Below, one piece after another: positions 19,445 through 42,383 of a stretch of DNA of 43,660 nucleotides (the stretch's first letter is position 1; each line of letters starts with the position of its first letter). The translations under genes and the position numbers were made by a program. A model generated the notes under the pieces. It was not told the DNA's origin, made no database searches, and saw nothing but the letters and a program-made list of their open reading frames with translations. The stretch covers positions 1-43,660 of the forward strand of contig CAYJWZ010000001.1 in NCBI GenBank assembly GCA_964374055.1. Reading direction: 5' to 3'. The stretch comes from an uncultured Candidatus Saccharibacteria bacterium. Lineage in GTDB: Bacteria > Patescibacteriota > Andersenbacteria > UBA10190.

Positions 19445-20434
19445 CTATCCGCGCTTTCGTTTGGCCACGCGCAACACCGCCGCCTGAATGGCATCGGCGT
19501 CCATGCGGTACTTTTTCAACAACTGCGCCGGTTCGCCCGATTCACCAAATGAGTTGTGCATGCCGACAAACTCCATCGGCACCGGATACGTCCGCGCCAA
19601 CACCTCGGCAATGGCGCTGCCTACCCCGCCCATCACCTGATGTTCCTCACACGTCACCACCGCCCCACACTCCCGGGCTGCCCGTTCAATCGCCTCTTCG
19701 TCCATCGGCTTAATGCTCGGCGAATTAATCACTCGCACCGAAACCCCGCGTTCAATTAACCGATCCGCCGCCACCAATGCTGAATGAATAATCGGCCCGG
19801 CGCCAATCACGGCGACGTCTTTTCCCTCGCGCAGCGTGAGCGCCTTGCCAATCTTGAACGGTGTCTTTTCCGTCGTGAATAAGGGACTGGCTGAGCGGGC
19901 AAAGCGAAAGTAGACCGGCCCATCAATGGCGGCGACTGCGTGTACTACCTTACGGGTTTCTTCAGCATCAGCCGGCACCAACACCGTCATCCGCGGTAAC
20001 ACGCGAGTAAGCGCTATATCCTCCATTGCCTGATGAGTCGCCCCGTCCGGCCCAACCGAAATGCCGCTATGGGCGCCGGCTAACTTCACATTAGCCTTGT
20101 TGTAACACATGGAAATGCGGATCTGATCCCAATTCCGGCCCGGGCAGAACACGGCGTAGGTAGAAACAAACGGAATTTTCCCGGCTAGCGCCAGCCCCAC
20201 CGCTACCGCCGCCATATTCTGCTCGGCCACACCCATTTCGATAAATCGCTCGGGGAATTTTTCCTGAAACTTGATCGCCCGGGTTGATTCCACTAAGTCG
20301 CCACTTAATACCACGACATCGTCGTTCTGCTCACCCAATTCCACCAGCCCCCGACCATACCCATCCCGCGTGGGCGCGAGCTCTACCTCCTTACTTAACG
20401 TCGCTCGTTTTAGATGAGCACCGTTACTCAACAT
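19445..20434 (-). CDS. tkt: Transketolase, C-terminal (pyrimidine-binding) subunit
   Basis: Split-type transketolase: MGVAEQNM, GPDGATHQAMEDIA, C-terminal domain; overlaps the N-subunit gene by 11 nt. Confidence 0.9.
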   Translation of the reverse strand: MLSNGAHLKRATLSKEVELAPTRDGYGRGLVELGEQNDDVVVLSGDLVESTRAIKFQEKFPERFIEMGVAEQNMAAVAVGLALAGKIPFVSTYAVFCPGRNWDQIRISMCYNKANVKLAGAHSGISVGPDGATHQAMEDIALTRVLPRMTVLVPADAEETRKVVHAVAAIDGPVYFRFARSASPLFTTEKTPFKIGKALTLREGKDVAVIGAGPIIHSALVAADRLIERGVSVRVINSPSIKPMDEEAIERAARECGAVVTCEEHQVMGGVGSAIAEVLARTYPVPMEFVGMHNSFGESGEPAQLLKKYRMDADAIQAAVLRVAKRKRG

Positions 20435-21272
20435 AAATTTTTCCTCCCAAAGTTCTTAGTTGCGTCAGTGCTGCCTTAGCTTGTGTGGCATCAGGCGGTA
20501 CTCCATGCCACTTGAAATCATACTCCATAAATTCCACTCCTTTGCCCGGAATCGTGTGCGCAATAATACAGACCGGCTTCTCCACAATCGCCTTCGCTTC
20601 GTTACAGGCATCAATGATCTGTTCAATATTATGGCCATCAACATCAATCACGTGCCAGCCGAAGGCTTCATACTTTTCCCGCAACGGCTCCAGTGTCATC
20701 ACCTGTTCGGTCGGCCCGTCAATTTGAATATTATTGCGATCAATAATCGCCGTCAGGTGCCCCAAGGTATAGTGTCCGGCAAACATCACTGCTTCCCACG
20801 TCGACCCCTCATCATGTTCGCCGTCTGATAACAGACAATAGGTCTGATATTTTTTTCCATCCAGCTTACCCGCATAGGCGCAGCCGGAGGCGATGCCCAA
20901 CCCTTGCCCCAAACTGGCCGCCGATGATTCCACGCCGGGCGTGGTCAGCCGGTCAATATGCCCTTGCAGGCGAGAACCCAATTTGCGCAGCGTTTTGAGT
21001 TCTGCCACCGGGAAAAATCCGGCGCGGGCCAACACGGCATACCAGATCGGCGCCGTATGCCCGCAGGAAACAAATAAGCGATCGCGATCCGGATCGTGTC
21101 GTTTACGCGGACTCAGATTCAAAACATCAAAATAAAGCGCTGTGGCGATCTCCGCTAAATCCAGCGGCCCGGCCGAGTGCCCCGAGCCGGCCGCCACCAA
21201 CATTTTAATCACATCTTGCCGCAGCGTAGTGGCCATACGCGCGAGCGTTGGAAGATGCTGTGCCTCCCGCAT
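20424..21272 (-). CDS. tkt: Transketolase, N-terminal (TPP-binding) subunit
   Basis: GHSAGPL, GSLGQGLGIASG, LSDGEHDEGSTWEA, IIDRNNIQIDG. Confidence 0.9.
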   Translation of the reverse strand: MREAQHLPTLARMATTLRQDVIKMLVAAGSGHSAGPLDLAEIATALYFDVLNLSPRKRHDPDRDRLFVSCGHTAPIWYAVLARAGFFPVAELKTLRKLGSRLQGHIDRLTTPGVESSAASLGQGLGIASGCAYAGKLDGKKYQTYCLLSDGEHDEGSTWEAVMFAGHYTLGHLTAIIDRNNIQIDGPTEQVMTLEPLREKYEAFGWHVIDVDGHNIEQIIDACNEAKAIVEKPVCIIAHTIPGKGVEFMEYDFKWHGVPPDATQAKAALTQLRTLGGKIYVE

Positions 21273-34350: not shown

Positions 34351-34497
34351 ATCAGGGAGTAGGCGTCGCTCTGAATTCGCCCGCCTGAGGCAGTATCTGC
34401 TTGTGATAATCATGTCCACGCAGTGTGCCGCGTTTTGGCACTAGCCCTACTTCTCCGCTGGGTTGAGAGCAGCTTGCGAGGTCATTACTGTGCGGTG

Positions 34498-34570
34498 TGT
34501 CCCCGGCAGGATTCGAACCTGCGGCCTTTGGCTTCGGAGGCCAACGCTCTATCCACTGAGCTACGAGGAC
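34498..34570 (-). tRNA. tRNA-Arg (anticodon CCG)
   Basis: Cloverleaf read by hand: GTCCTCG/CGGGGAC acceptor, GCTC-AGTGGATA-GAGC D-arm, TTGGC-CTCCGAA-GCCAA anticodon arm, GCAGG-TTCGAAT-CCTGC T-arm, discriminator A. No encoded CCA. Confidence 0.9.
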
Positions 34571-34637: not shown

Positions 34638-34646
34638 TGCTATGAT
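34638..34646 (+). promoter_or_regulatory. Possible extended -10 promoter of the riboswitch transcript
   Basis: TGc-TATGAT; no convincing -35. Confidence 0.3.
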
Positions 34647-34659
34647 AACCATGCTCCTT

Positions 34660-34810
34660 TGAACTTCGATAGAACACGTGGTTCGCTGCCACGCTTAGTC
34701 CGCCAGCTGGCGGATAGGTCCAGGGAAAGTCGGTGCAAATCCGACGCTGGTATGCCGCAACTGTAATTTCTGCTACCAAGCAGAATAAGTCAGAGCGCCT
34801 GGGTTCTTAA
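34660..34810 (+). promoter_or_regulatory. Cobalamin (B12) riboswitch aptamer
   Basis: Core matches the RF00174 consensus as I recall it: AGGGAA (34722-34727), GTC-GGTGCAAATCC-GAC (34732-34742), GCTGG..GCCGCAACTGTAA (34754-34766), P6-like hairpin TTCTGC-taccaa-GCAGAA, B12-box-like AAGTCAGAGCGCCTGGG (34787-34803). Confidence 0.75.
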
Positions 34811-34851
34811 TACTGTTACCTTCGTGCATAAGGATATTTTTTTATTTGTGT

Positions 34852-34887
34852 AAACTCCTTGTGCGCTCGCCAAGGAGTTTTTGTTTT
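34852..34887 (+). terminator. Riboswitch expression platform: terminator hairpin that also sequesters the RBS
   Basis: AAACTCCTTG (34852-34861) / CAAGGAGTTT (34871-34880) followed by TTGTTTT. The AAGGAG in the 3' arm is the only RBS for ATG 34888. Confidence 0.7.
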
Positions 34888-37800
34888 ATGAGTGAAATCC
34901 AAACACCCGACCTTGAAATGCTAGAAGAATTGCCAGAAGTGGCTGCTTTTGATTCGAAGAAAGAAGATGAGCCCGACGAAGATAAGAAAACAGAAGAAAA
35001 AGAACAGGTTGAAGATGAGGAAGCGGCAGACTTTGAAGCCGCCGAGGAGGAGCTCATGGCCATAGCTGGCTGCAGTCGGCTCGAGATAGTATCAGCTGCC
35101 GAAACATACGAAGTGACGGTCGAGCCCGATGGCCGCGCTTATATCGGCACGAGTCTGATTCCCAATTTTGTCCCGGAGCCCAGCCACGTTGGGGTCGATG
35201 ACAAAGGCATAGAACACGGCATGTACGCCAGAGTTATGACGGGCCAGCGCACCGAGGGCGATAAAAAAATATACACCTTCATGGTACAGAACTACCGAAT
35301 ACCCGAAACCGAGCAACCAGCTGAAGAAGTTTCCAAAGAAGAACTATTACTTACCGAACCATTGATCATGGAACAACCGGGTGAACAGGTATGGAGTGAA
35401 GAAGAGAACCTCGCTCCAGCCGAACAAGTTGAAAATAAAGCAGCTGGATATGCGACTGATGCAGTAGAATTGCCCGGGGAAATAACCGAAGAAGTTGTTA
35501 TCGAAGCGTCGCCGCTAGTAGCCGAAACTGATCTAGAAACGAGCATTATTGTACCCCTGCCTAAAACAAGTGCTATCGAGGCTCCCCTACCAACCGGTGT
35601 CGAACAACCAATAGCCATTCCCCCAGTCGAAACAATACTCCAAGAAAGCGACAAAAAGCCAGACATACCTCAAGGAATTGAGGTTATTGCTGATGTTCGA
35701 GAACAAGAAGCAACACCACCAAAAAGCATTGAAGTGCCGATCGTAGAAAACACCCTAGAACAATCAGAGATCATTAGTCAGCCACAGGTTGAAATCACGA
35801 CCCTTGAAACCCCAGCTAAGCCCCCTGTTCAAAATTATGAGGTGAATACGGTTGTGCCAGTTGAAGTAAAAAGCAAAAAGTTTAAAGTTACTGAAATTGT
35901 CGTGCCGCAGGAGGTAACAAAGATAGAAAAAAATACGGTGACAGTTGAGCAAGCTCCCCCTCAACCAAAAAGTATCATGGCTGAAGTAACAGCACGTGAG
36001 ACAACTCCAATCTCTATAACCCCTAGCGAAAATCTGAGCACCACAAAAGAAACACAGGCACCTGAGAATGATTTCGTTCCCAAAGAGTTGTCACCCACAC
36101 CAGCAATCACCGCACCAGGCCACAACGAAGTACAAGTGCCAATAGAAACAAGAAAGTTACAACCAGTAGTAGTTGAGTCAGCAAGTACTGAGTTACCTAT
36201 CACTGTCCCTATAAGCGCAACAGAAAAACCCACAATTCTTGTGGATGATTTAGCAGTTACCTACGAACCGTCGCCTTCACGTCTCGTGGTGCCGGAAGTA
36301 ACAATAAACGATGATTCAGTAGCTACTCTTGAAGTGTCGCCAAAGCCAGCGCAGGCAATTGAAAGATCACCCAAAACTATCAAGCAAACCCCAAGCAATA
36401 TTTCTCAACCTATTTCTGTCTCAAAAGTCGAAACGCATGCTCAACCACCTGTCGTAGAGAAAACTACACCAGTCTCTAGCGAAGTACCTGTTACCACTAT
36501 TGAAGTAATTTCAGTTGACCAACCAGAACAAGACAGAATAGTTGAAGATGACTTTGTAATCACACAAGAGCCTGCGCCTGTCTTCAACAGTGAAAAAGTG
36601 CCCTTTGTCAATGAAGTGCCATCTCAAAAAGTAGCCATATCAGAAACAGTAGTTGAGTCAGCAAGTACTGAGTTACCTATCACTGTCCCTATAAGCGCAA
36701 CAGAAAAACCCACAATTCTTGTGGATGATTTAGCAGTTACCTACGAACCGTCGCCTTCACGTCTCGTGGTGCCGGAAGTAACAATAAACGATGATTCAGT
36801 AGCTACTCTTGAAGTGTCGCCAAAGCCAGCGCAGGCAATTGAAAGATCACCCAAAACTATCAAGCAAACCCCAAGCAATATTTCTCAACCTATTTCTGTC
36901 TCAAAAGTCGAAACGCATGCTCAACCACCTGTCGTAGAGAAAACTACACCAGTCTCTAGCGAAGTACCTGTTACCACTATTGAAGTAATTTCAGTTGACC
37001 AACCAGAACAAGACAGAATAAAAGTAGCCATATCAGAAACAAGCGAGTCACCAACAAAAAACATGGAACCAATCCATGTTATTCCTGTTAATGAGCCAAA
37101 GGTACCGCCACTGGTAGCACCCGAAGCCATTACTCAAGAAAAAACTAGCAACCCTGACATAACTCCCCCAGAAATAGTTGTTGATCTTGTGCAGCCAATT
37201 CTTAAAGTGGAGTCGCCCGCGCCCATTGCACCAACTGAAATGGTTGAAACTCAGCCGTCCCCAACAACAGTTTCGCCTGTTGTATTCACGCCACCTGAAA
37301 CAAAGTCACCACCGGCAATCACCGAACAAGCACCAACAACCGCACCAGAGCTAACAACCTTTAATCCACAAACCGACATAAAAGAACCTGCCCCGGCCGC
37401 ACCCCCTGTCCCATTACAAGCGCCAACTACACCAGCGCCGCTGGTAACACCACCCCCACCACAGAATTTCACACCCCAACCCCCAATGCCCCCAGTGAGC
37501 ACTAAGTTTGTAATTCCGGAAGCAATCAGTCAGTTAACCCCACCCGAAATAATAAGTGCTGTCTCGCAACCCTCTTCTTCACCAGAATCATTCGTACCAA
37601 TCCCGCCCGAAAGACCCCAACCAGAAGTTCGTCCACTCTCTCCAGAAGTAGCCGAAGAAATTACTGAAATCATGCAAACCCCGCCGATCGTTCAACAAGA
37701 AAATACTCCACCACTGTTCCCGCCCGAAATAATCATTCGCGACCGCAAAGGCATCATTACGCAGCCGTTCTATGAAGTTATGGCCGCCCTCGAAGCCGCG

Positions 37801-38250
37801 CCACGCGGCACCACTATTGAAGTAGTCGGCCCCGTTGATGAAGACGGTAAAGTGCAAGATGTTACTGTATTGGAGCACATACAGGATAGCCAAACCGGTG
37901 AACCAATAATTCAACAACGCTTTTTTGAACGTCCGGTAGCCGAGCAAAGCGAAGCCACGCCCCCGGCAACTAATTGGGAGGTGGCCACGGTTGCTACCGG
38001 TGTGTTTGCAGTCCAAAGCGAAAAACAGACTTTCTCGCCTATTGTTATTACTGAGCGCGACCTGATCACCGTGGCCGAAACTGCCAGTAGTCGTACTACC
38101 AAAGCGCCGCGAGGTGCAAAACAAGAAGCCGCTCCTTTCGCTACCAAACCGCAACCAGCGCTCGTACTTACTGTATCTGATCAAACCACCACAGCCACGG
38201 CCGCAACGACCGTTCCACCAATCAGTATAAGAACCTATGCCGCAAACTAA
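34888..38250 (+). CDS. Giant acidic, Pro/Glu/Val/Thr-rich repeat protein (1120 aa), hypothetical
   Basis: ATG 34888 (MSEIQTPD...) with AAGGAG 11 nt upstream. Single long ORF; no signal peptide or TM seen; 160-aa in-frame duplication; Pro-rich stretch near residues 800-900. Confidence 0.7.
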   Translation: MSEIQTPDLEMLEELPEVAAFDSKKEDEPDEDKKTEEKEQVEDEEAADFEAAEEELMAIAGCSRLEIVSAAETYEVTVEPDGRAYIGTSLIPNFVPEPSHVGVDDKGIEHGMYARVMTGQRTEGDKKIYTFMVQNYRIPETEQPAEEVSKEELLLTEPLIMEQPGEQVWSEEENLAPAEQVENKAAGYATDAVELPGEITEEVVIEASPLVAETDLETSIIVPLPKTSAIEAPLPTGVEQPIAIPPVETILQESDKKPDIPQGIEVIADVREQEATPPKSIEVPIVENTLEQSEIISQPQVEITTLETPAKPPVQNYEVNTVVPVEVKSKKFKVTEIVVPQEVTKIEKNTVTVEQAPPQPKSIMAEVTARETTPISITPSENLSTTKETQAPENDFVPKELSPTPAITAPGHNEVQVPIETRKLQPVVVESASTELPITVPISATEKPTILVDDLAVTYEPSPSRLVVPEVTINDDSVATLEVSPKPAQAIERSPKTIKQTPSNISQPISVSKVETHAQPPVVEKTTPVSSEVPVTTIEVISVDQPEQDRIVEDDFVITQEPAPVFNSEKVPFVNEVPSQKVAISETVVESASTELPITVPISATEKPTILVDDLAVTYEPSPSRLVVPEVTINDDSVATLEVSPKPAQAIERSPKTIKQTPSNISQPISVSKVETHAQPPVVEKTTPVSSEVPVTTIEVISVDQPEQDRIKVAISETSESPTKNMEPIHVIPVNEPKVPPLVAPEAITQEKTSNPDITPPEIVVDLVQPILKVESPAPIAPTEMVETQPSPTTVSPVVFTPPETKSPPAITEQAPTTAPELTTFNPQTDIKEPAPAAPPVPLQAPTTPAPLVTPPPPQNFTPQPPMPPVSTKFVIPEAISQLTPPEIISAVSQPSSSPESFVPIPPERPQPEVRPLSPEVAEEITEIMQTPPIVQQENTPPLFPPEIIIRDRKGIITQPFYEVMAALEAAPRGTTIEVVGPVDEDGKVQDVTVLEHIQDSQTGEPIIQQRFFERPVAEQSEATPPATNWEVATVATGVFAVQSEKQTFSPIVITERDLITVAETASSRTTKAPRGAKQEAAPFATKPQPALVLTVSDQTTTATAATTVPPISIRTYAAN
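36168..36540 (+). repeat. 373-bp direct repeat, copy 1 (100% identical to copy 2)
   Basis: Line-by-line comparison with 36648-37020; offset is exactly 480 bp (in frame). Confidence 0.95.
36648..37020 (+). repeat. 373-bp direct repeat, copy 2
   Basis: Identical to 36168-36540. A 21-nt motif AAAGTAGCCATATCAGAAACA flanks it on both sides (36628-36648 and 37021-37041). Confidence 0.95.
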
Positions 38251-39916
38251 CACCCCGCTCCGGATCCGCGATCTGCTGCGCGAAGATATAGGTTATGAAC
38301 GCCTGCCACTCATCGAACGCCAGGCTGAACTTGACCGCTTGGCCCGTCGCTTGCGCCAACGTCGCCACAATAATCTCATTATCACTGGCCCGGCTGGTTG
38401 TGGTAAAACTGCCCTCTTCCACGGTTTTGTTGAAAAGCTTGCCACCGGCGCCTACCGCCAGCTAGTCGCCATGCCATACCTTAGTATATCCGCCACCGAG
38501 CTCAGTCGGCGCTTACTTGAGGCCCCGGATCGGGAAACAGTTTGTAACTATCTGGCCGCTGCCTTCAGGACATTGCCGACCGTAACCGTACTCATTGACG
38601 ATGCCGAACTTATCCTCGATGAACTGCACAGCCGTTCAGAGTTTACTCAAATCTTCGAAACTTTTTTGATCTCTGCCCGTTGCCGCCTCGTGCTCGTTCT
38701 TCCTCAACATCGTCTAACGATCATAAAAGAAAAATTCGATGCCGCCCTCACCAGTTTCGATATCCTCACCCTTGATCCACTCTCTAGTGCCGCCACCGAA
38801 CAACTCGTCATCCAACAGACTCCTCTGCTCGCTCAGCGCTATCACCTCCGCATGACCCGCGATGCCATCCAGACAATTGTTGAATTCAGTCAGCAACTAC
38901 CCATGCACTACGCCTTGCCCGAACGTGCCCTGCGCTTTTTTGAAGAAGTCTGCGCGGCTACTTCACTTCAGAATAAATCTGTCGTGGAGCGTAGCGATGT
39001 CCAAGCAGTGTTTCGCCAGCACGTTGGCCTACCGGCCCTTCAGCAAAATTCTGAACAAACCAATCGTTTACGTCAGCTGCCCGATATTCTAGCCAGCCAC
39101 GTGCACGGCCAGGCACACGCCGTTACCATAGTAGCTAAAACCGTTCAAGCCTCATGGCTCGGCCTGAAAGACGGTCGCCGCCCCTTTGGCTCTTTTTTAT
39201 TCCTCGGGCCCTCCGGTGTCGGCAAAACTGAACTGGCCAAAGTGCTGGCTCGTGAAGTGTTTGGTAGTGAGCAAACTTTTCTGCGCTTGGATATGTCAGA
39301 ATTTGCCGAGTCACATAACGCGCAGCGTCTTCTCGGTGCCCCACCCGGCTATGTCGGCTATGAAGCCGGTGGCCAGTTAACCAGCTTTGTGGAGCAACAC
39401 CCCTTTTCGTTGATTTTGCTCGACGAAATTGAAAAAGCGCATCCCTCTCTTTTTGATTTGTTCCTGCAAATTCTGGACGATGGTCGCTTAACCGATGGGC
39501 ACGGCCAGACAATCGATTTCACCAAAACCATCATTGTTGCTACTTCGAATGTCGGCACTTCTTACATCGTCGATGAAGCTGAACAAGGAAAAGATATCAC
39601 CAGTCATTCCTGGTTTAATGAGTATCTTTTGCCGCTCCTCTTGGAACGGTTCCGCCCCGAGTTTATTAATCGCTTCTCCGCCACCCTGGTCTTTAAGCCA
39701 CTCTCTGATGAAACGCTCTTGGCCATTGCTCACCAGGAACTACGTCGTCTCGAGCACCAAGTGCGACCACGCGGTATCACCTTACAATTTTCTGATGACT
39801 GGCTGCGTCAGCAAGTGCACCACTACCGCCACCCGCTTTTTGGTGCCCGTCCGTTGAAACGTTTCCTGGAACAAACATGTGAAAATCTTGTAACCGCTAA
39901 ATTATTACAACTATGA
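38237..39916 (+). CDS. Truncated Clp/Hsp100-type double AAA+ ATPase (559 aa; no N-domain or middle domain)
   Basis: D1: NNLIITGPAGCGKTAL, VLIDDAELI. D2: FLFLGPSGVGKTELAKVLA, PPGYVGYEAGGQLT, LILLDEIEKAH, ATSNVG, FRPEFINRFSATLVFKPL, GARPLKRFLE. ATG overlaps the upstream gene by 14 nt. Confidence 0.8.
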   Translation: MPQTNTPLRIRDLLREDIGYERLPLIERQAELDRLARRLRQRRHNNLIITGPAGCGKTALFHGFVEKLATGAYRQLVAMPYLSISATELSRRLLEAPDRETVCNYLAAAFRTLPTVTVLIDDAELILDELHSRSEFTQIFETFLISARCRLVLVLPQHRLTIIKEKFDAALTSFDILTLDPLSSAATEQLVIQQTPLLAQRYHLRMTRDAIQTIVEFSQQLPMHYALPERALRFFEEVCAATSLQNKSVVERSDVQAVFRQHVGLPALQQNSEQTNRLRQLPDILASHVHGQAHAVTIVAKTVQASWLGLKDGRRPFGSFLFLGPSGVGKTELAKVLAREVFGSEQTFLRLDMSEFAESHNAQRLLGAPPGYVGYEAGGQLTSFVEQHPFSLILLDEIEKAHPSLFDLFLQILDDGRLTDGHGQTIDFTKTIIVATSNVGTSYIVDEAEQGKDITSHSWFNEYLLPLLLERFRPEFINRFSATLVFKPLSDETLLAIAHQELRRLEHQVRPRGITLQFSDDWLRQQVHHYRHPLFGARPLKRFLEQTCENLVTAKLLQL

Positions 39917-40125
39917 CTGATCCGGCCGCCGCTTTCCAAAAAGTTAAGCCACTCCTCTCGCCAGCAGTCGTGGCGGAGATTGAACAGCGCCTCAAACGTT
40001 TTCGGGCTCGTCATGTTGAGCAACACCGAGCTGCCACAAAGCGCGCGCCGGTAGTAACGACCCCTTGGGTTATGCGCCCCAAGGCTCCGCCCCGTCCCCT
40101 TAATCGTTCCTACTTTACCCTATGA
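39913..40125 (+). CDS. Small hypothetical protein (70 aa)
   Basis: ATGA overlaps at both ends (39913-39916 and 40122-40125) indicate translational coupling. Confidence 0.5.
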   Translation: MTDPAAAFQKVKPLLSPAVVAEIEQRLKRFRARHVEQHRAATKRAPVVTTPWVMRPKAPPRPLNRSYFTL

Positions 40126-41423
40126 ACCACCGTGTCCTCTTGGGTAAAACTACCTTTCGTAATGAAGAATATAACGTCTCACTCAGCCCGTCGGATCGGC
40201 TGCGGCATGTCTACCTCATCGGCAAAACCGGCACCGGAAAATCTACCCTGTACCAAAACATGATGCGCCAGGATATCTTGGCCGGTGCCGGCTGCTGTTT
40301 CGTGGACCCCCACGGCGAAGCCATTGACTGGCTGCTCGGAACTATCCCGCCGCACCGTCTCGAAGACGTGGTTGTGTTTGATCCCTCCGACACCGACTGG
40401 CCGCTCAGCCTCAATTTGCTGGAGTGGCATACTCCCACTGAAAAAGATTTTCTGGTCGCTGAAGCCATTGAAATTTTCTACAAACTATTTGATCCGGAAA
40501 AAACCGGCGTCATCGGGCCGCAATTTGAGCACTGGATGCGCAACGCCGCGCTCACGGTGATGGCCGATCCCGACGGCGGTACGTTGATTGAGATCCCGCG
40601 TTTGTTTACCGACCCGGCCTTTGAAGTGAAAAAACGCCGTTTCGTGACTGATCCGGTCGTCAAAGCCTTCTGGGAACAACAAATGACAAAAACCTCCGCT
40701 TTTCATCGTTCCGAAATGCTGAATTACTTCACTTCCAAATTTGGCCGCTTTACGACCAACAGCTTAATGCGTAATATTATTGGCCAGCGCCAGAGCACTA
40801 TTTCACTGGCCGATGCCCTGGAACAGCAAAAAATTGTGCTGGTCAACTTATCGAAAGGTGAAATCGGCGAGACCAACGCTTTTATGCTCGGCCTTATTCT
40901 CATGACGAAACTCCAGATGGCCGTCATGAAGCGGGCCTCGGTACCAGTCGAAGAACGCACCCCCTTCTATCTCTATGTCGATGAGTTCCATAATGTCATG
41001 ACTGATGCCTTTATTGACATGCTATCCGAGGCGCGTAAATATGGCCTGGCCGTACACCTGGCCAATCAATATATTACTCAGCTCACCGAATCAGTCCGCA
41101 ATGCCGTACTGGGTAACGCCGGTACCCTCATCGCCTTTCAAGTCGGCGCCCAGGATACCGCCGTGCTGCTCCGCGAATTTGATACCCAGCAAGGCAAGCG
41201 CCGCTCTGACCAATTAAAAGAAGACGACTTCTTATATTTAGCCCGCCACCATTTCTACATTCGCCCGGTCATTGAAGGCATAACCCGCCAACCGTTTCGC
41301 TGTGTCGGTTTTCCACCCGAAGCGGCCACCGGCAATTTGTCAGCCAATGATGTTCGCACTGTCTCCCGCCTCCGCTTCGGCCTGCCTGTCCGGCAGGCAG
41401 GCCTCCCCAGTGCTATACTATAA
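40122..41423 (+). CDS. Soluble VirD4/TraD/TraG-like (type IV coupling protein-type) P-loop ATPase
   Basis: HVYLIGKTGTGKSTL..FVDPHGE (Walker A context), FYLYVDEFHN (Walker B), EARKYGLAVHLANQYITQL. No N-terminal TM helices. The 3' end runs through a 21-nt palindromic repeat. Confidence 0.65.
   Translation: MNHRVLLGKTTFRNEEYNVSLSPSDRLRHVYLIGKTGTGKSTLYQNMMRQDILAGAGCCFVDPHGEAIDWLLGTIPPHRLEDVVVFDPSDTDWPLSLNLLEWHTPTEKDFLVAEAIEIFYKLFDPEKTGVIGPQFEHWMRNAALTVMADPDGGTLIEIPRLFTDPAFEVKKRRFVTDPVVKAFWEQQMTKTSAFHRSEMLNYFTSKFGRFTTNSLMRNIIGQRQSTISLADALEQQKIVLVNLSKGEIGETNAFMLGLILMTKLQMAVMKRASVPVEERTPFYLYVDEFHNVMTDAFIDMLSEARKYGLAVHLANQYITQLTESVRNAVLGNAGTLIAFQVGAQDTAVLLREFDTQQGKRRSDQLKEDDFLYLARHHFYIRPVIEGITRQPFRCVGFPPEAATGNLSANDVRTVSRLRFGLPVRQAGLPSAIL
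41381..41401. repeat. 21-nt palindrome CCTGCCTGTCCGGCAGGCAGG, copy 1 (inside a CDS 3' end)
   Basis: Identical copy at 42452-42472; encodes LPVRQAG in frame. Confidence 0.85.
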
Positions 41424-41426
41424 AGC

Positions 41427-42383
41427 GTGTCGTCTCCCTCTCATTTCGTCGAGCTTAACAAGGTTGCGGCCGGCTTTAACGCCCCGCCTTCCTTCTTCGC
41501 GCGGCTAAAAGGCACCCGACCTCCTGAACTCAATGTCCTGCGTGACATTAGTTTTAGCCTGCAAGCCGGGGAACAAATAACACTCTTTGGGTTGGAAGCG
41601 GCCGGTAAATCAACCCTGCTCCGCTTATTGGCCGGGGCACTGCGCCCCGCCAAGGGTACTATTCTAATAAACGGCCAAGCGCCACACCGTATACTCCATG
41701 CCGCCGCCGGCTATGTTTCCAGCGAAGAAACTGAACCCAATGGAGAAACCGCCATCCAAATTTTACATGCCTTTGGCAAAACACACGGGCTTACCAACTT
41801 ACCATCCCGCCTTGGTGAACTAACCGAACCACTGAAACTCGCTACTATCCTGCATCGCCCCGTCGGCAGTTTGTCGACTATCGAACGGTTGCGGTTAAAC
41901 GTAGCCAAAGCTGCTTTATCAAAGGCTCCCGTAATCCTATTAGACGATGTCGCTGATGCTCTTGGCCCCGAAGAAGTAAAAAAACTCTGCCGTACTGTGT
42001 TTGATCATCGCACGCTCGTTGTGGCCACGCGCGTTGCCACTACGGCCGATACACTCGCCTTACCGATACTGATATTGGAACATGGTACCCTCGCCCGGCA
42101 CGGCACCATTGCGGAACTAGCCGAAGAAGTAAATTGCCCAACCACCGTTGATATTTATGTTGAGGGACTACGGTACGGCCTATTACGGCAAATCAAAAAT
42201 CATCCCGGCGTGAAGAACGTCCGCCTGCTGCCCAGCACCGATTTTGCCGGCCAGCGTCTGCAAATTCACTTGGCATCCCAACACTACTTGCCTGCCCTCT
42301 ACGACCTCATCACCCAAGCGCCTCTCTTACGTATCGAAGAACACCCCATTTCCCTGGCCGACATCCTCCGGCATCTTTCCTGA
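41427..42383 (+). CDS. ABC-type ATPase with degenerate signature and Walker B motifs (DrrA-like with C-terminal domain)
   Basis: GLEAAGKSTLLRLLAG (Walker A), LSTIERLRL in place of LSGGQ, VILLDDVADAL (DD instead of DE). GTG start 3 nt after the upstream stop. No permease gene on this strand. Confidence 0.6.
   Translation: MSSPSHFVELNKVAAGFNAPPSFFARLKGTRPPELNVLRDISFSLQAGEQITLFGLEAAGKSTLLRLLAGALRPAKGTILINGQAPHRILHAAAGYVSSEETEPNGETAIQILHAFGKTHGLTNLPSRLGELTEPLKLATILHRPVGSLSTIERLRLNVAKAALSKAPVILLDDVADALGPEEVKKLCRTVFDHRTLVVATRVATTADTLALPILILEHGTLARHGTIAELAEEVNCPTTVDIYVEGLRYGLLRQIKNHPGVKNVRLLPSTDFAGQRLQIHLASQHYLPALYDLITQAPLLRIEEHPISLADILRHLS

Follow-up and report, generated by a model that had tools for sequence, protein, structure and literature searches.

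The DNA analysed here, a 43,660-nt stretch from a CPR/Patescibacteria bacterium (the window), carries a five-gene operon on its forward strand, preceded by a predicted cobalamin-type riboswitch leader at positions 34671–34887 (Table 1). The first-pass annotation had listed a set of B12-aptamer motifs, followed by a 10-bp hairpin with a Shine-Dalgarno sequence in its 3' arm, a T-run and an ATG, and each of these elements was found where it had been placed. P13 with its loop L13, the antiterminator, two 5' hairpins and a probable P1 had been overlooked. The annotation likewise gave no account of switching through an L5–L13 kissing loop and an antiterminator. Of the two 5' hairpins, hairpin A has an invariant stem and a varying loop in the window, L189, L190 and L191 and is also present in L009, while hairpin B covaries fully in the alignment (CACUUC/GAGGUG in L189, GCUUGC/GCGAGU in L190, CCCCGC/GUGGGG in L191 and CACU/AGUG in L009). 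All five pairs of the 5-bp candidate P1 are standard and invariant among four close relatives, and its equivalent in L009, AGGAUU/AAUCCU, adds a single compensatory event that lends weak support. Upstream of the leader, TTTCTGCTATGAT of a candidate −10 element is kept in L190 and L191, both of them close relatives; a scan for the sigma-70 consensus returned no full promoter.

Table 1. Features of the riboswitch leader and the downstream operon (window positions).
Feature	Position	Strand	Basis or remark
Candidate extended −10 promoter element TGCTATGAT	34638–34646	+	read from sequence; inferred
Candidate P1, 5' strand AGAAC	34671–34675	+	pairs with GUUCU 34803–34807
5' hairpin A, CGUGG-loop-CCACG	34677–34693	+	comparison with relatives
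5' hairpin B, UCCGCC-AGCU-GGCGGA	34699–34714	+	covariation
Cobalamin aptamer core P3–P6	34717–34805	+	RF01689, R1, covariation, Rfam-passing orthologues
P3	34720–34724 with 34798–34802	+	aptamer core
AGGGAA	34722–34727	+	read from sequence
P4, GTCGG-TGCAAAT-CCGAC	34729–34745	+	read from sequence
GCTG..GCCGCAACTGTAA	34746–34766	+	read from sequence
P5/L5	34748–34759 (L5 34750–34757)	+	aptamer core
P6a	34761–34763 with 34791–34793	+	aptamer core
Short P6 hairpin TTCTGCT/AGCAGAA (P6b)	34768–34785	+	read from sequence
B12-box-like AAGTCAGAGCGCCTGGG	34787–34803	+	read from sequence
B12-box J6/3	34787–34797	+	aptamer core
Candidate P1, 3' strand GUUCU	34803–34807	+	pairs with AGAAC 34671–34675
P13 hairpin CCUU/AAGG, loop L13 CGUGCAU (34823–34829)	34819–34833	+	L5 complementarity
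Antiterminator 5' strand GUGCAUAAGGA	34824–34834	+	pairs with UCCUUGUGCGC 34856–34866, 11 bp
Terminator/sequestrator hairpin, 10 bp, 9-nt loop	34852–34880	+	arms 34852–34861/34871–34880
Shine-Dalgarno AAGGAG	34872–34877	+	in 3' arm of terminator hairpin
U-run UUUUUGUUUU (DNA TTTTTGTTTT)	34878–34887	+	stops 1 nt before start codon ATG 34888
Gene 1	34888–38250	+	1120-aa acidic protein (pI 4.3), P/T/E-rich, mostly low-complexity, C-terminus -YAAN
Gene 2	38237–39916	+	559-aa ClpA/ClpB-like double AAA+ protein, without N-domain or M-domain
Gene 3	39913–40125	+	70-aa basic ORF, translational coupling to genes 2 and 4
Gene 4	40122–41423	+	433-aa VirD4/TrwB/HerA-like ATPase
Gene 5	41427–42383	+	318-aa ABC-type ATPase, no permease adjacent

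The product of gene 1 is a fast-evolving, disordered, acidic protein with no match in Pfam, NCBIfam or PADLOC. An exhaustive HMMER search of 1.84 billion representatives returned three relatives, and a word-index search the protein itself alone; its C-terminal domain was modelled by AF2 with a mean pLDDT of 46.9 and gave nothing better than E = 0.39 against the PDB in Foldseek, and homology between the gene-1 families of different clades went undetected (hhalign probability 1.7%). Gene 2 encodes a pair of AAA+ modules together with a D2-small domain, features that characterize the Hsp100/Clp proteins ClpA, ClpB, ClpC and ClpV (AAA_2, 4e-55; ClpB_D2-small, 7e-13), aligning with ClpA residues 187–714 and also with the ClpB D2 module. 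It differs from these proteins in its size and missing domains (Table 1) and in its D2 region, where we presume the ClpP-docking loop of ClpA to lie and where no IG[FL] tripeptide was found; all its NCBIfam equivalog scores fall well short of their cutoffs, the best reaching 352 bits where 1232 are required, and it is not an equivalog of ClpA, ClpB, ClpC or ClpV. A small ORF occupies the slot of gene 3 in relatives as well. Gene 4 shares with the VirD4/TrwB coupling proteins the domains TrwB_AAD_bind (2.7e-10, 40.1 bits versus a cutoff of 20.5), TraG-D_C (31 versus 22) and DUF87, and retrieves TrwB from the PDB at 3e-4. It lacks their N-terminal membrane anchor, as no TM segment was found, and no virB4, T4SS or relaxase genes lie within the window; we therefore call it VirD4-like rather than a T4CP. 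Gene 5 is present within the clade to which the window belongs (L189, L190, L192 and the P0012 contig).

Comparison with Pfam, NCBIfam, PADLOC and the PDB gave no match between any of the five products and an enzyme, binding protein or transporter connected with B12, in keeping with the earlier remark that the downstream genes have no known B12 link, and the operon thus falls outside B12 transport, B12 biosynthesis and the B12-independent isozymes that make up the known cobalamin regulon. The nearby tRNA and the AAA+ and HerA-like genes might also suggest a defence system. PADLOC returned only generic ATPase-domain matches, and we rejected this reading, as the operon is chromosomal, lies amid housekeeping genes and keeps its synteny with ftsEX and prfB from one relative to the next.

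The significant RF00174 match that the first-pass annotation had anticipated did not appear: at Rfam gathering thresholds, the window yielded two tRNAs only. Its best Rfam model was RF01689 (AdoCbl-II), matched over its full length at 34710–34808 (E = 6e-4, Rfam in E-value mode) with 26.4 bits against a gathering threshold of 36.5, and the window stayed below every threshold of the cobalamin clan. A gathering threshold is an operational cut-off and not a biological feature; as the window copy misses it, membership in the clan was argued via homology to leaders that pass. Seven orthologous leaders, located at the equivalent place in front of this operon, reach the threshold of RF00174 or RF01482, five of them exceeding the 31.5 bits of RF00174 (L002 45.4, L006 38.2, L003 36.2, L195 34.0 and L193 32.2 bits) and two, L004 and L007, scoring about 54 bits versus 50 for RF01482. 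A covariance model made from four other orthologous leaders, with the window excluded (R1), matched positions 34717–34805 at 52 bits (E = 3e-11, 1.14 Mb searched), and the fold of the leader was better than that of all 200 dinucleotide shuffles (z = −3.3).

The shortfall in Rfam stems from insertions, of 24 nt in P6 and of 8 nt in L5, and from the weakness of P1, not from mismatches in the core. The core of the cobalamin clan CL00101 (GGGAA in J3/4, GGUG-AA-UCC in L4, GCCGCAACUGUAA and the B12 box AAGUCAG..CC) is complete and in order, its motifs align to the uppercase RF01689 consensus and are invariant across orthologous leaders, and the window copy retains every position found to be invariant in the first alignment, which comprised six leaders. 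Alongside the window, L009, L005, L189–L192 and L194 are missed at the same cut-offs, meaning that Rfam thresholds overlook an entire sub-clade of these leaders. Judged from such sequence comparisons, the stretch 34671–34887 is best identified as a genuine but divergent cobalamin-type riboswitch leader. As an RNA, it adds one more member to a textbook riboswitch class; its regulon has not been reported.

Two samples drawn blind to the riboswitch, one via gene 4 and one via gene 2, yielded seven and five operons, respectively, that have this architecture and whose upstream DNA is present. The aptamer lay immediately 5' of gene 1 in 7/7 and 5/5 of these cases. The absence of the leader from homologous operons, which the first-pass annotation had held to speak against its proposal, was therefore encountered in none of the 12; the weak case among them is L197, with a degenerate aptamer of 18.5 bits. 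Overall, at least 19 operons have the element at the orthologous position. All of the relatives are MAGs from CPR/Patescibacteria; L189 and L190 occur in the samples SRR22387945 and SRR22388145. None of 60 VirD4-like loci of other architecture carried a riboswitch, even with a broader model (R2).

Covariation supports the aptamer at two depths. Among eight operon leaders, pairing is kept in 98.6% of cells and compensatory change is seen at 11 of 18 pairs, a result equalled by 0 of 500 shuffles; among 95 distinct sequences, 96.1% of cells pair, with 471 double changes versus 137 expected, again 0 of 500 shuffles equal and slid controls reaching at most 44% pairing, both alignments having been fitted to the model and the figures accordingly being somewhat inflated. 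In four close relatives every aptamer helix is intact, with P6b changing from U-A to C-G and a C in L5 changing to U to give U.G. The platform helices in these relatives are compatible and nearly invariant, and 170 and 366 of 500 shuffles did as well; statistical covariation is absent here because the four closest relatives vary too little. What these comparisons demonstrate is the sequence itself, its homology, the covariation of the aptamer and the conserved linkage of riboswitch and operon.

Downstream of the aptamer, the sequence of L13 complements that of L5 (UAUGCCG) apart from a single bulged nucleotide at 34825. Published work on kissing loops requires L13 to lie in a stem-loop and to contribute at least one unpaired nucleotide (PMC5028336), and the predicted L13 of the window would fit both. 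The best L5–platform duplex falls at P13 in seven of eight leaders, that of L005 lying elsewhere, with a duplex energy no better than that obtained with shuffled L5. Across lineages, the type of L5 co-varies with the type of L13: of 119 aptamers whose L5 is UGCCG, 95 are followed by the L13 motif CG-N-GCA, compared with 54 of 416 background segments, and the extended L5 GUAUGCCG (window, L189–L191, L009 and L192–L194) always occurs with an extended L13, CG-N-GCAUA. Within the proposed duplex, the pair 34755–34826 changes from C-G to U.G in L190.

For the nascent transcript up to position 34870, the predicted MFE structure is the antiterminator (−15.2 kcal/mol), whose pair 34825–34865 is U.G in two of the four relatives, U-A in another and C-G in the last. 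The 10-bp hairpin further downstream (−11.5 kcal/mol, invariant in close relatives) contains G+C and is directly followed by the U-run, as in rho-independent terminators; a consensus terminator scan gave no match, since the hairpin loop measures 9 nt and the scan allows a maximum of 8. The arrangement of GGAG in the 3' arm, U-run and ATG recurs in identical design in L009, L124, L148 and L149, and L098/L161, L181, L193 and L194 also show a U-run followed by ATG, with weaker SD-like arms. Over the full length, the MFE structure includes the terminator without ligand (−19.1 versus −16.1 kcal/mol with the antiterminator forced), so that the ON state would require kinetic control.

These observations are best accommodated by a cobalamin-sensing riboswitch that would switch the five-gene operon OFF, a reading to which we assign a probability of roughly 85% on comparative grounds. 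The aptamer would form a four-way junction P3–P6 of the short-P6 type, with the two clade-specific hairpins on its 5' side. With B12 bound, L5 is proposed to kiss L13 (CG-U-GCAU), the loop of P13, a weak hairpin of 4 bp; this contact would sequester GUGCAUAAGGA and let the 10-bp hairpin form, acting as an intrinsic terminator through the U-run and at the same time masking the sole Shine-Dalgarno sequence. When B12 is lacking, GUGCAUAAGGA would pair with UCCUUGUGCGC in the 5' arm of the terminator once this is transcribed, and the resulting 11-bp antiterminator would permit readthrough and leave the Shine-Dalgarno sequence free. The OFF switch through a joint terminator and SD-sequestering hairpin that had been suggested at first pass is thus supported by the comparative data, while the identity of the ligand, the direction of switching, its kinetic control and any function of the operon are inferred.

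Among known systems, the leader most resembles the AdoCbl-II or 'AdoCbl-variant' class (RF01689; prototype env8HyCbl, PMC5028336), with which it shares a compact four-way junction whose P6 is short, GAGCGCC as the sequence of J6/3, and an L5 that kisses, in our proposal, a downstream L13 stem-loop with an unpaired nucleotide. It differs from RF01689 in its longer L5 (8 nt), the P6 insertion, the weak P1 and the two added 5' hairpins. Moreover, the ribosome-binding site of env8 lies within L13, whereas L13 of the window would govern the choice between antiterminator and terminator, with the Shine-Dalgarno sequence in the 3' arm of the latter. With the terminator riboswitches of RF00174 and RF01482, which act OFF via intrinsic terminators, it has the core in common (GGGAA, GGUGxAAxUCC, GCCGCAACUGUAA and B12 box) but not the large P6 extension, and its genes stand outside the known B12 regulon. 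The B12 riboswitch of M. tuberculosis ppe2 likewise precedes a gene of uncertain function, although neither the organism nor the genes behind it nor the platform is related, and uORF translation is reported to be involved there (PMC11260477).

The alternative that fares best retains the fold and changes the effector. Cobalamin riboswitch classes differ in selectivity, and the window clade, with its extended kissing loop and RF01689-like J6/3, could sense a different corrinoid, for instance MeCbl or HyCbl in place of AdoCbl, or some other ligand. Its J6/3, GAGCGCC, is 1 nt longer than the GAUACC of Doudnabacteria-type leaders, and its best Rfam model is RF01689 as opposed to RF00174 or RF01482 for the other leaders. 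One operon is nevertheless regulated in both clades, which argues for a single physiological signal. We regard a shift in selectivity as conceivable, though a good deal less probable than not, and as a refinement of the cobalamin-sensing reading that does not contradict it; a non-corrinoid ligand is unsupported.

It is improbable that control is purely translational, with a hairpin that masks only the Shine-Dalgarno sequence and a U-run that simply reflects the AT richness around the start codon. The placement of this sequence in the 3' arm and of the ATG right behind the U-run would fit such control, as would the env8-type riboswitches, which act chiefly at ribosome loading (PMC5028336). In Doudnabacteria-type leaders, however, the hairpin and U-run are located 20–30 nt 5' of the start codon and contain no Shine-Dalgarno sequence, so that only a terminator is possible there, and the window hairpin is the positional equivalent.

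Slightly less probable still is a relic, that is, a descendant of a cobalamin riboswitch which has lost B12 binding and left the hairpin as a constitutive or otherwise controlled attenuator. The sub-threshold Rfam score, the presence of the terminator in the full-length MFE whatever the ligand, and L197, which proves that degeneration can occur in this operon family, would all be compatible with it. Against this, the window keeps the invariant positions of the six-leader alignment and all aptamer helices, the loss in Rfam was traced to insertions and the weak P1 while the core matches, and the whole leader is kept in four close relatives with changes that preserve pairing. A mere chance likeness to a B12 aptamer in a structured intergenic region beside a tRNA gene, which could appeal to the missing match at gathering threshold, is refuted to within a very small residual probability by the R1 E-value, the covariation and the presence of the element at the equivalent place in at least 19 operons.

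If B12 switches the operon OFF through a cobalamin-sensing riboswitch, as we prefer, the operon would represent a B12-starvation response of this CPR/Patescibacteria bacterium. The organism itself may be unable to make B12, as suggested at first pass; no cob/cbi genes lie within the 43-kb window. Elsewhere, the same aptamer subtype is found 5' of genes for BtuF-like, TonB-receptor, DUF4430/transcobalamin-like, NrdB and NrdD proteins, a context that speaks for the cobalamin class of ligand. In a second architecture (L124, L148 and L149), it precedes a family termed X together with a membrane-anchored VirD4-like ATPase, and this unit adjoins nrdJ in L124 and L148 and also a PduO-type adenosyltransferase in L124. 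Apart from a C-terminal zinc ribbon, family X has no match in Pfam, NCBIfam or PDB, and it showed no homology to the gene-1 families (hhalign 0.2%; hmmsearch). Supported by this second architecture, we tentatively suggest that the operon might encode a hitherto unrecognised unfold-and-translocate module of CPR bacteria, driven by ATP and induced by B12 starvation. Its role would be to obtain or spare cobalamin: the acidic protein might, for example, be exported or deployed so as to take corrinoid from the host, or the module might offset a failed B12-dependent NrdJ. We hold this to be possible rather than likely.

In Patescibacteria, 5,713 VirD4-like homologues have been counted in 2,918 genomes, 148 of them near virB4, and exaptation has been suggested; the portion of that study available to us draws no link from orphan VirD4-like ATPases to a riboswitch or a ClpB-like partner (PMC12102498). 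CPR/Patescibacteria genomes contain many conserved genes without assigned function, including thousands of such 'orphan' ATPases outside T4SS (PMC12102498). In the literature searched, we found no paper that connects cobalamin riboswitches with CPR bacteria; PMC10409787 deals with TPP riboswitches of Variovorax and has no bearing on them. Orphan B12 riboswitches have previously led to new B12 binders and transporters. Here, the riboswitch may serve as a functional tag that offers a first clue to the function of the operon: a conserved cobalamin riboswitch ahead of it implies that its genes would be needed when B12 is scarce, which provides a testable hypothesis on the B12 economy of obligate epibionts that are unable to make cofactors.

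The leader is bounded by a tRNA-Arg(CCG) gene and the start codon of gene 1 at 34888, and a sequence reading of this intergenic region located all of the B12-aptamer motifs that the first-pass annotation had listed, each at the position claimed. A 241-nt leader folded better than 200 of 200 dinucleotide shuffles (z = −3.3). The significant RF00174 match predicted by the same annotation was not obtained, as only two tRNAs were recovered in the window at Rfam gathering thresholds. The best match in E-value mode was to the full AdoCbl-II model RF01689 (26.4 bits, E = 6e-4), which lies below the gathering score of 36.5 bits; the conserved core positions of the model agree in the window copy, and the loss of score is explained by a 24-nt P6 insertion, an 8-nt L5 and a poor P1.

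As gene 1 is nearly an orphan, gene 4 was used as bait for related loci (numbered with the prefix L), yielding 68 among GTDB species representatives, all of them CPR/Patescibacteria MAGs. The covariance model R1, built from four orthologous leaders with the window left out, matched the window leader with 52 bits (E = 3e-11 in 1.14 Mb) as well as seven loci, always directly 5' of the gene that opens the same operon. Five of the R1-matched leaders reach curated Rfam thresholds, three by RF00174 (45.4, 38.2 and 36.2 bits; threshold 31.5) and two by RF01482 (53.5 and 53.8 bits; threshold 50). Across eight operon leaders, 98.6% of cells were paired with compensatory changes in 11 of 18 pairs, while none of 500 shuffles was as good and slid registers reached at most 48%. 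A further 120 loci came from scanning metagenomes with a pattern specific to the subtype. Among 95 distinct sequences, 96.1% of cells were paired and 471 were compensatory (expected, 137); both alignments were model-fitted, so that these figures are somewhat inflated, yet the margin over the controls is large.

Elsewhere, the same aptamer subtype precedes classic members of the B12 regulon, namely genes for DUF4430 plus alpha/alpha-toroid, BtuF-like, TonB receptor, NrdB and NrdD proteins, a pattern in favour of a corrinoid ligand; in transcobalamin-type binders, DUF4430 forms the C-terminal domain (PMC4350170). We consider it highly probable (roughly 85%) that the leader works as an OFF switch responding to cobalamin. 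As an RNA it adds a divergent member to a known class, and its proposed mechanism is the canonical one. L148 and L097 each carry a second, lower-scoring aptamer match (R1, 37-39 bits), suggesting that B12 controls a further unit nearby.

The contigs of three gene-1 relatives (L189-L191) supplied closely related copies of the entire leader. Changes among them preserve pairing, with a U-A to C-G exchange in P6b (L191) and C-G to U.G in P3 (L189), and a C to U change in L5 of L190 creates a U.G pair with L13. In all, 170 of 500 shuffles equalled the observed covariation value, as this set is too invariant for statistical covariation, and its helices are accordingly rated as compatible, not proven. 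Close relatives also have a tRNA gene at the position of the divergent one 5' of the leader, which argues for chromosomal synteny rather than an integration scar.

Coordinates of the leader, the operon and related loci (window positions unless a locus is named)
Feature	Position	Remarks
tRNA gene, divergent (tRNA-Arg-CCG in the window)	34497-34570 (-); L191:724-796 (-); L189:1-45 (-)	5' of leader
Candidate extended -10 element TGCTATGAT	34638-34646	conserved in close relatives
Candidate P1, 5 bp	34671-34675 with 34803-34807	encloses the rest; one compensatory event, in L009
Hairpin A	34677-34693	stem invariant
Hairpin B	34699-34714	full covariation in five sequences
RF01689 match	34710-34808	
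Four-way junction (P3-P6)	34717-34805	aptamer core
R1 match	34717-34805	
P13, weak 4-bp hairpin	34819-34833	-1.4 kcal/mol; downstream of aptamer
Antiterminator, 11 bp	34824-34834 with 34856-34866	
AAGGAG	34872-34877	
Gene 1		1120 aa, acidic, pI 4.3, rich in P, T, E; no family match
Gene 1 direct duplication	36168-36540 and 36648-37020	373 nt, 100% identity, spacing 480 nt
Gene 1 C-terminus	38230-38250	
Gene 2		559-aa ClpA/B-like double AAA+ protein without N-domain or M-domain
Gene 3		70-aa basic protein
Gene 4		VirD4/TrwB/HerA-like ATPase, TM-less
Gene 5		ABC ATPase, no adjacent permease
Transketolase, two ORFs	19445-21272 (-)	TPP-binding N-terminal half 282 aa; Pyr/C-terminal half 329 aa
Second aptamer matches	L148:8549-8613 (+); L097:5960-6040 (+)	
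Degenerate-looking aptamer	L197:3884-3976	
PaaX_M neighbour	L004:4937-5422; L181:2200-2721; L195:3434-3961	
Family X examples	L112:2663-3889(-); L114:2034-3572(-); L102:9068-10462(-); L124:4664-5806	plus 42 other loci
nrdJ 5' of riboswitch-X	L124:1411-4498; L083, L106, L143, L148, L151, L169	Ribonuc_red_lgC + TSCPD
VirD4-like gene after X	L124:6304-8664; L148:12078-14438	
VirD4-like, other CPR lineages	L010:8804-11317	and similar

Downstream of the aptamer, the P13 loop CGUGCAU and L5 (UAUGCCG) are complementary apart from one bulged nucleotide (34825), and the best duplex between L5 and the platform falls in the P13 loop in seven of eight operon leaders, all but L005. The energy of this duplex alone was no better than that obtained with shuffled L5. 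The motif CG-N-GCA occurs just downstream in 95 of the 119 leaders with L5 = UGCCG (background, 54 of 416 segments) and is flanked by a stem in 85 of those 95. The extended L5 GUAUGCCG is accompanied by the matching extended L13, CG-N-GCAUA, in each of the eight leaders that have it (window, L189-L191, L009, L192-L194). According to Polaski et al. (PMC5028336), L13 must be displayed in a stem-loop, and at least one nucleotide of the kissing loop is always left unpaired. The motif enrichment, the matched extension of both loops and these requirements together provide independent support for the L5-L13 contact.

For the nascent RNA, before the 3' arm of the terminator has been made, the minimum free energy structure is the antiterminator (−15.2 kcal/mol), built with six of the seven nucleotides of the L13 loop (34824-34829), the 3' arm of P13 and base 34834, whereas in the full-length RNA the terminator wins with −19.1 versus −16.1 kcal/mol when the antiterminator is forced. 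The antiterminator pair 34825-34865 reads U.G, U.G, U-A and C-G in four relatives, which is suggestive only. We infer a canonical switching logic, in which B12 would stabilise the L5-L13 contact and P13, the antiterminator could then not nucleate, and the terminator would form, also burying AAGGAG and placing its U-run against the ATG. A consensus terminator scan of the window found nothing, because the hairpin loop has 9 nt and the scan allows 8. The proposal of a dual terminator and RBS-sequestering platform holds for the clade of the window, as the order of GGAG in the 3' arm, U-run and ATG recurs in L009, L124, L148 and L149, and a U-run followed by ATG with weaker SD-like arms was found in L098/L161, L181, L193 and L194. 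In Doudnabacteria-type leaders the terminator lies 20-30 nt before the start codon, leaving termination as the sole option there.

Genes 1-5 form one operon, since their junctions overlap or abut (38237/38250, 39913/39916, 40122/40125, 41423/41427), and none of them has a known B12 role. The rest of the window is ordinary chromosome (aminoacyl-tRNA synthetases, CTP synthase, split transketolase, BipA, UvrD, ftsX), with no B12 enzymes or transporters within it. No IG[FL] tripeptide was present in the part of the gene 2 D2 region that corresponds to the ClpP-docking loop of ClpA. Gene 1 is conserved between clades in position but not in sequence (hhalign probability 1.7%); nearly every gene-1 protein inspected is acidic, and lengths are mostly 600-1100 aa. 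Among 19 complete proteins, including those of the window and of orthologs in L002-L007, L098, L181, L183, L192, L195 and L197, 11 end in -AA and three in -AAN, though the families are not mutually alignable, and these ends beside a ClpA/B-like unfoldase gene recall an ssrA-type C-terminal degron. The perfect direct duplication within gene 1 repeats about 124 aa and is either a very recent event or an assembly artefact.

Linkage between riboswitch and operon was assessed in two samples picked blind to the riboswitch, via gene 4 and via gene 2. In the former, nine of 68 loci showed the architecture of gene 1, ClpB-like, small ORF and standalone VirD4-like gene, and the aptamer was present in all seven of this architecture with upstream DNA. 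The remaining approximately 60 loci, which in those inspected carry the VirD4-like domain fused in proteins of ~590-850 aa, yielded no aptamer even with the broader model R2. The gene-2 sample comprised seven homologs (38-49% identity), all in the same architecture, and the aptamer lay 5' of gene 1 in 5/5 with upstream DNA (four at 49-70 bits, L197 at 18.5), two of them also passing RF00174. The L197 copy lacks GGGAA and the L4 motif while keeping GCAACUGUGA...AAGCCAGA, and may represent decay or a riboswitch variant. Joined, the blind samples give 12 of 12 operons with an aptamer (L197 weakly), and at least 19 operons are reached when the window, L189-L191, the metagenomic L098/L116/L161, L181 and L183 are added. 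In Doudnabacteria-type loci, a gene for a 161-175-aa PaaX_M (Cas2-like) protein is conserved directly 5' of the riboswitch, and the operon is followed by one for an OmpR-type response regulator; PaaX_M was verified in L004 and L195, assigned in L181 and L183 by BLAST match to L004, and judged in L002, L006 and L007 by size and position of a 161-aa ORF only.

The commonest gene directly 3' of the aptamer subtype in metagenomic loci (46 of 98 first ORFs) encodes the unannotated family X, soluble proteins of 350-590 aa with a C-terminal CxxC...CxxC zinc ribbon, for which Pfam, NCBIfam and the PDB contain no relative. The gene often stands alone as a monocistronic unit. Directly 5' of riboswitch-X, on the same strand, at least seven loci have nrdJ (class II RNR), and L124 has a gene for a PduO-type cob(I)alamin adenosyltransferase (TIGR00636, 1.4e-59) between nrdJ and the riboswitch. 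Downstream of X, L124, L148 and L149 have a small ORF and then a VirD4-like gene, whose product in L124 and L148 is 786 aa long and carries a TM anchor at its N-terminus, so that the VirD4-like ATPase appears under B12-riboswitch control in two architectures. In other CPR lineages the VirD4-like domain forms the C-terminal half of 786-850-aa proteins with one N-terminal TM, and a few kb downstream there is often a second paralog of 1040-1150 aa. Most VirD4 homologues of Patescibacteria are not near virB4 and may be exapted, according to PMC12102498.

Taken by its parts, an unfoldase that looks independent of ClpP, a translocase of the FtsK/HerA/VirD4 type and a disordered protein whose short C-terminus is conserved, the operon could constitute a B12-starvation-induced, ATP-driven unfold-and-translocate module with gene 1 as cargo or scaffold. 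It may capture corrinoid from the host or the environment, make up for a failing B12-dependent NrdJ, or act as a more general starvation-triggered host-interaction device; that the operon directly serves B12 acquisition or sparing seems possible but less likely than not. No report of the regulon, that is riboswitch plus operon, was found in the literature searched, and it is this regulon, not the RNA class, that is of interest, the switch itself being ordinary. For a CPR operon that is widespread but of unknown function, the riboswitch is a strictly conserved entry point that lends itself to experiment.
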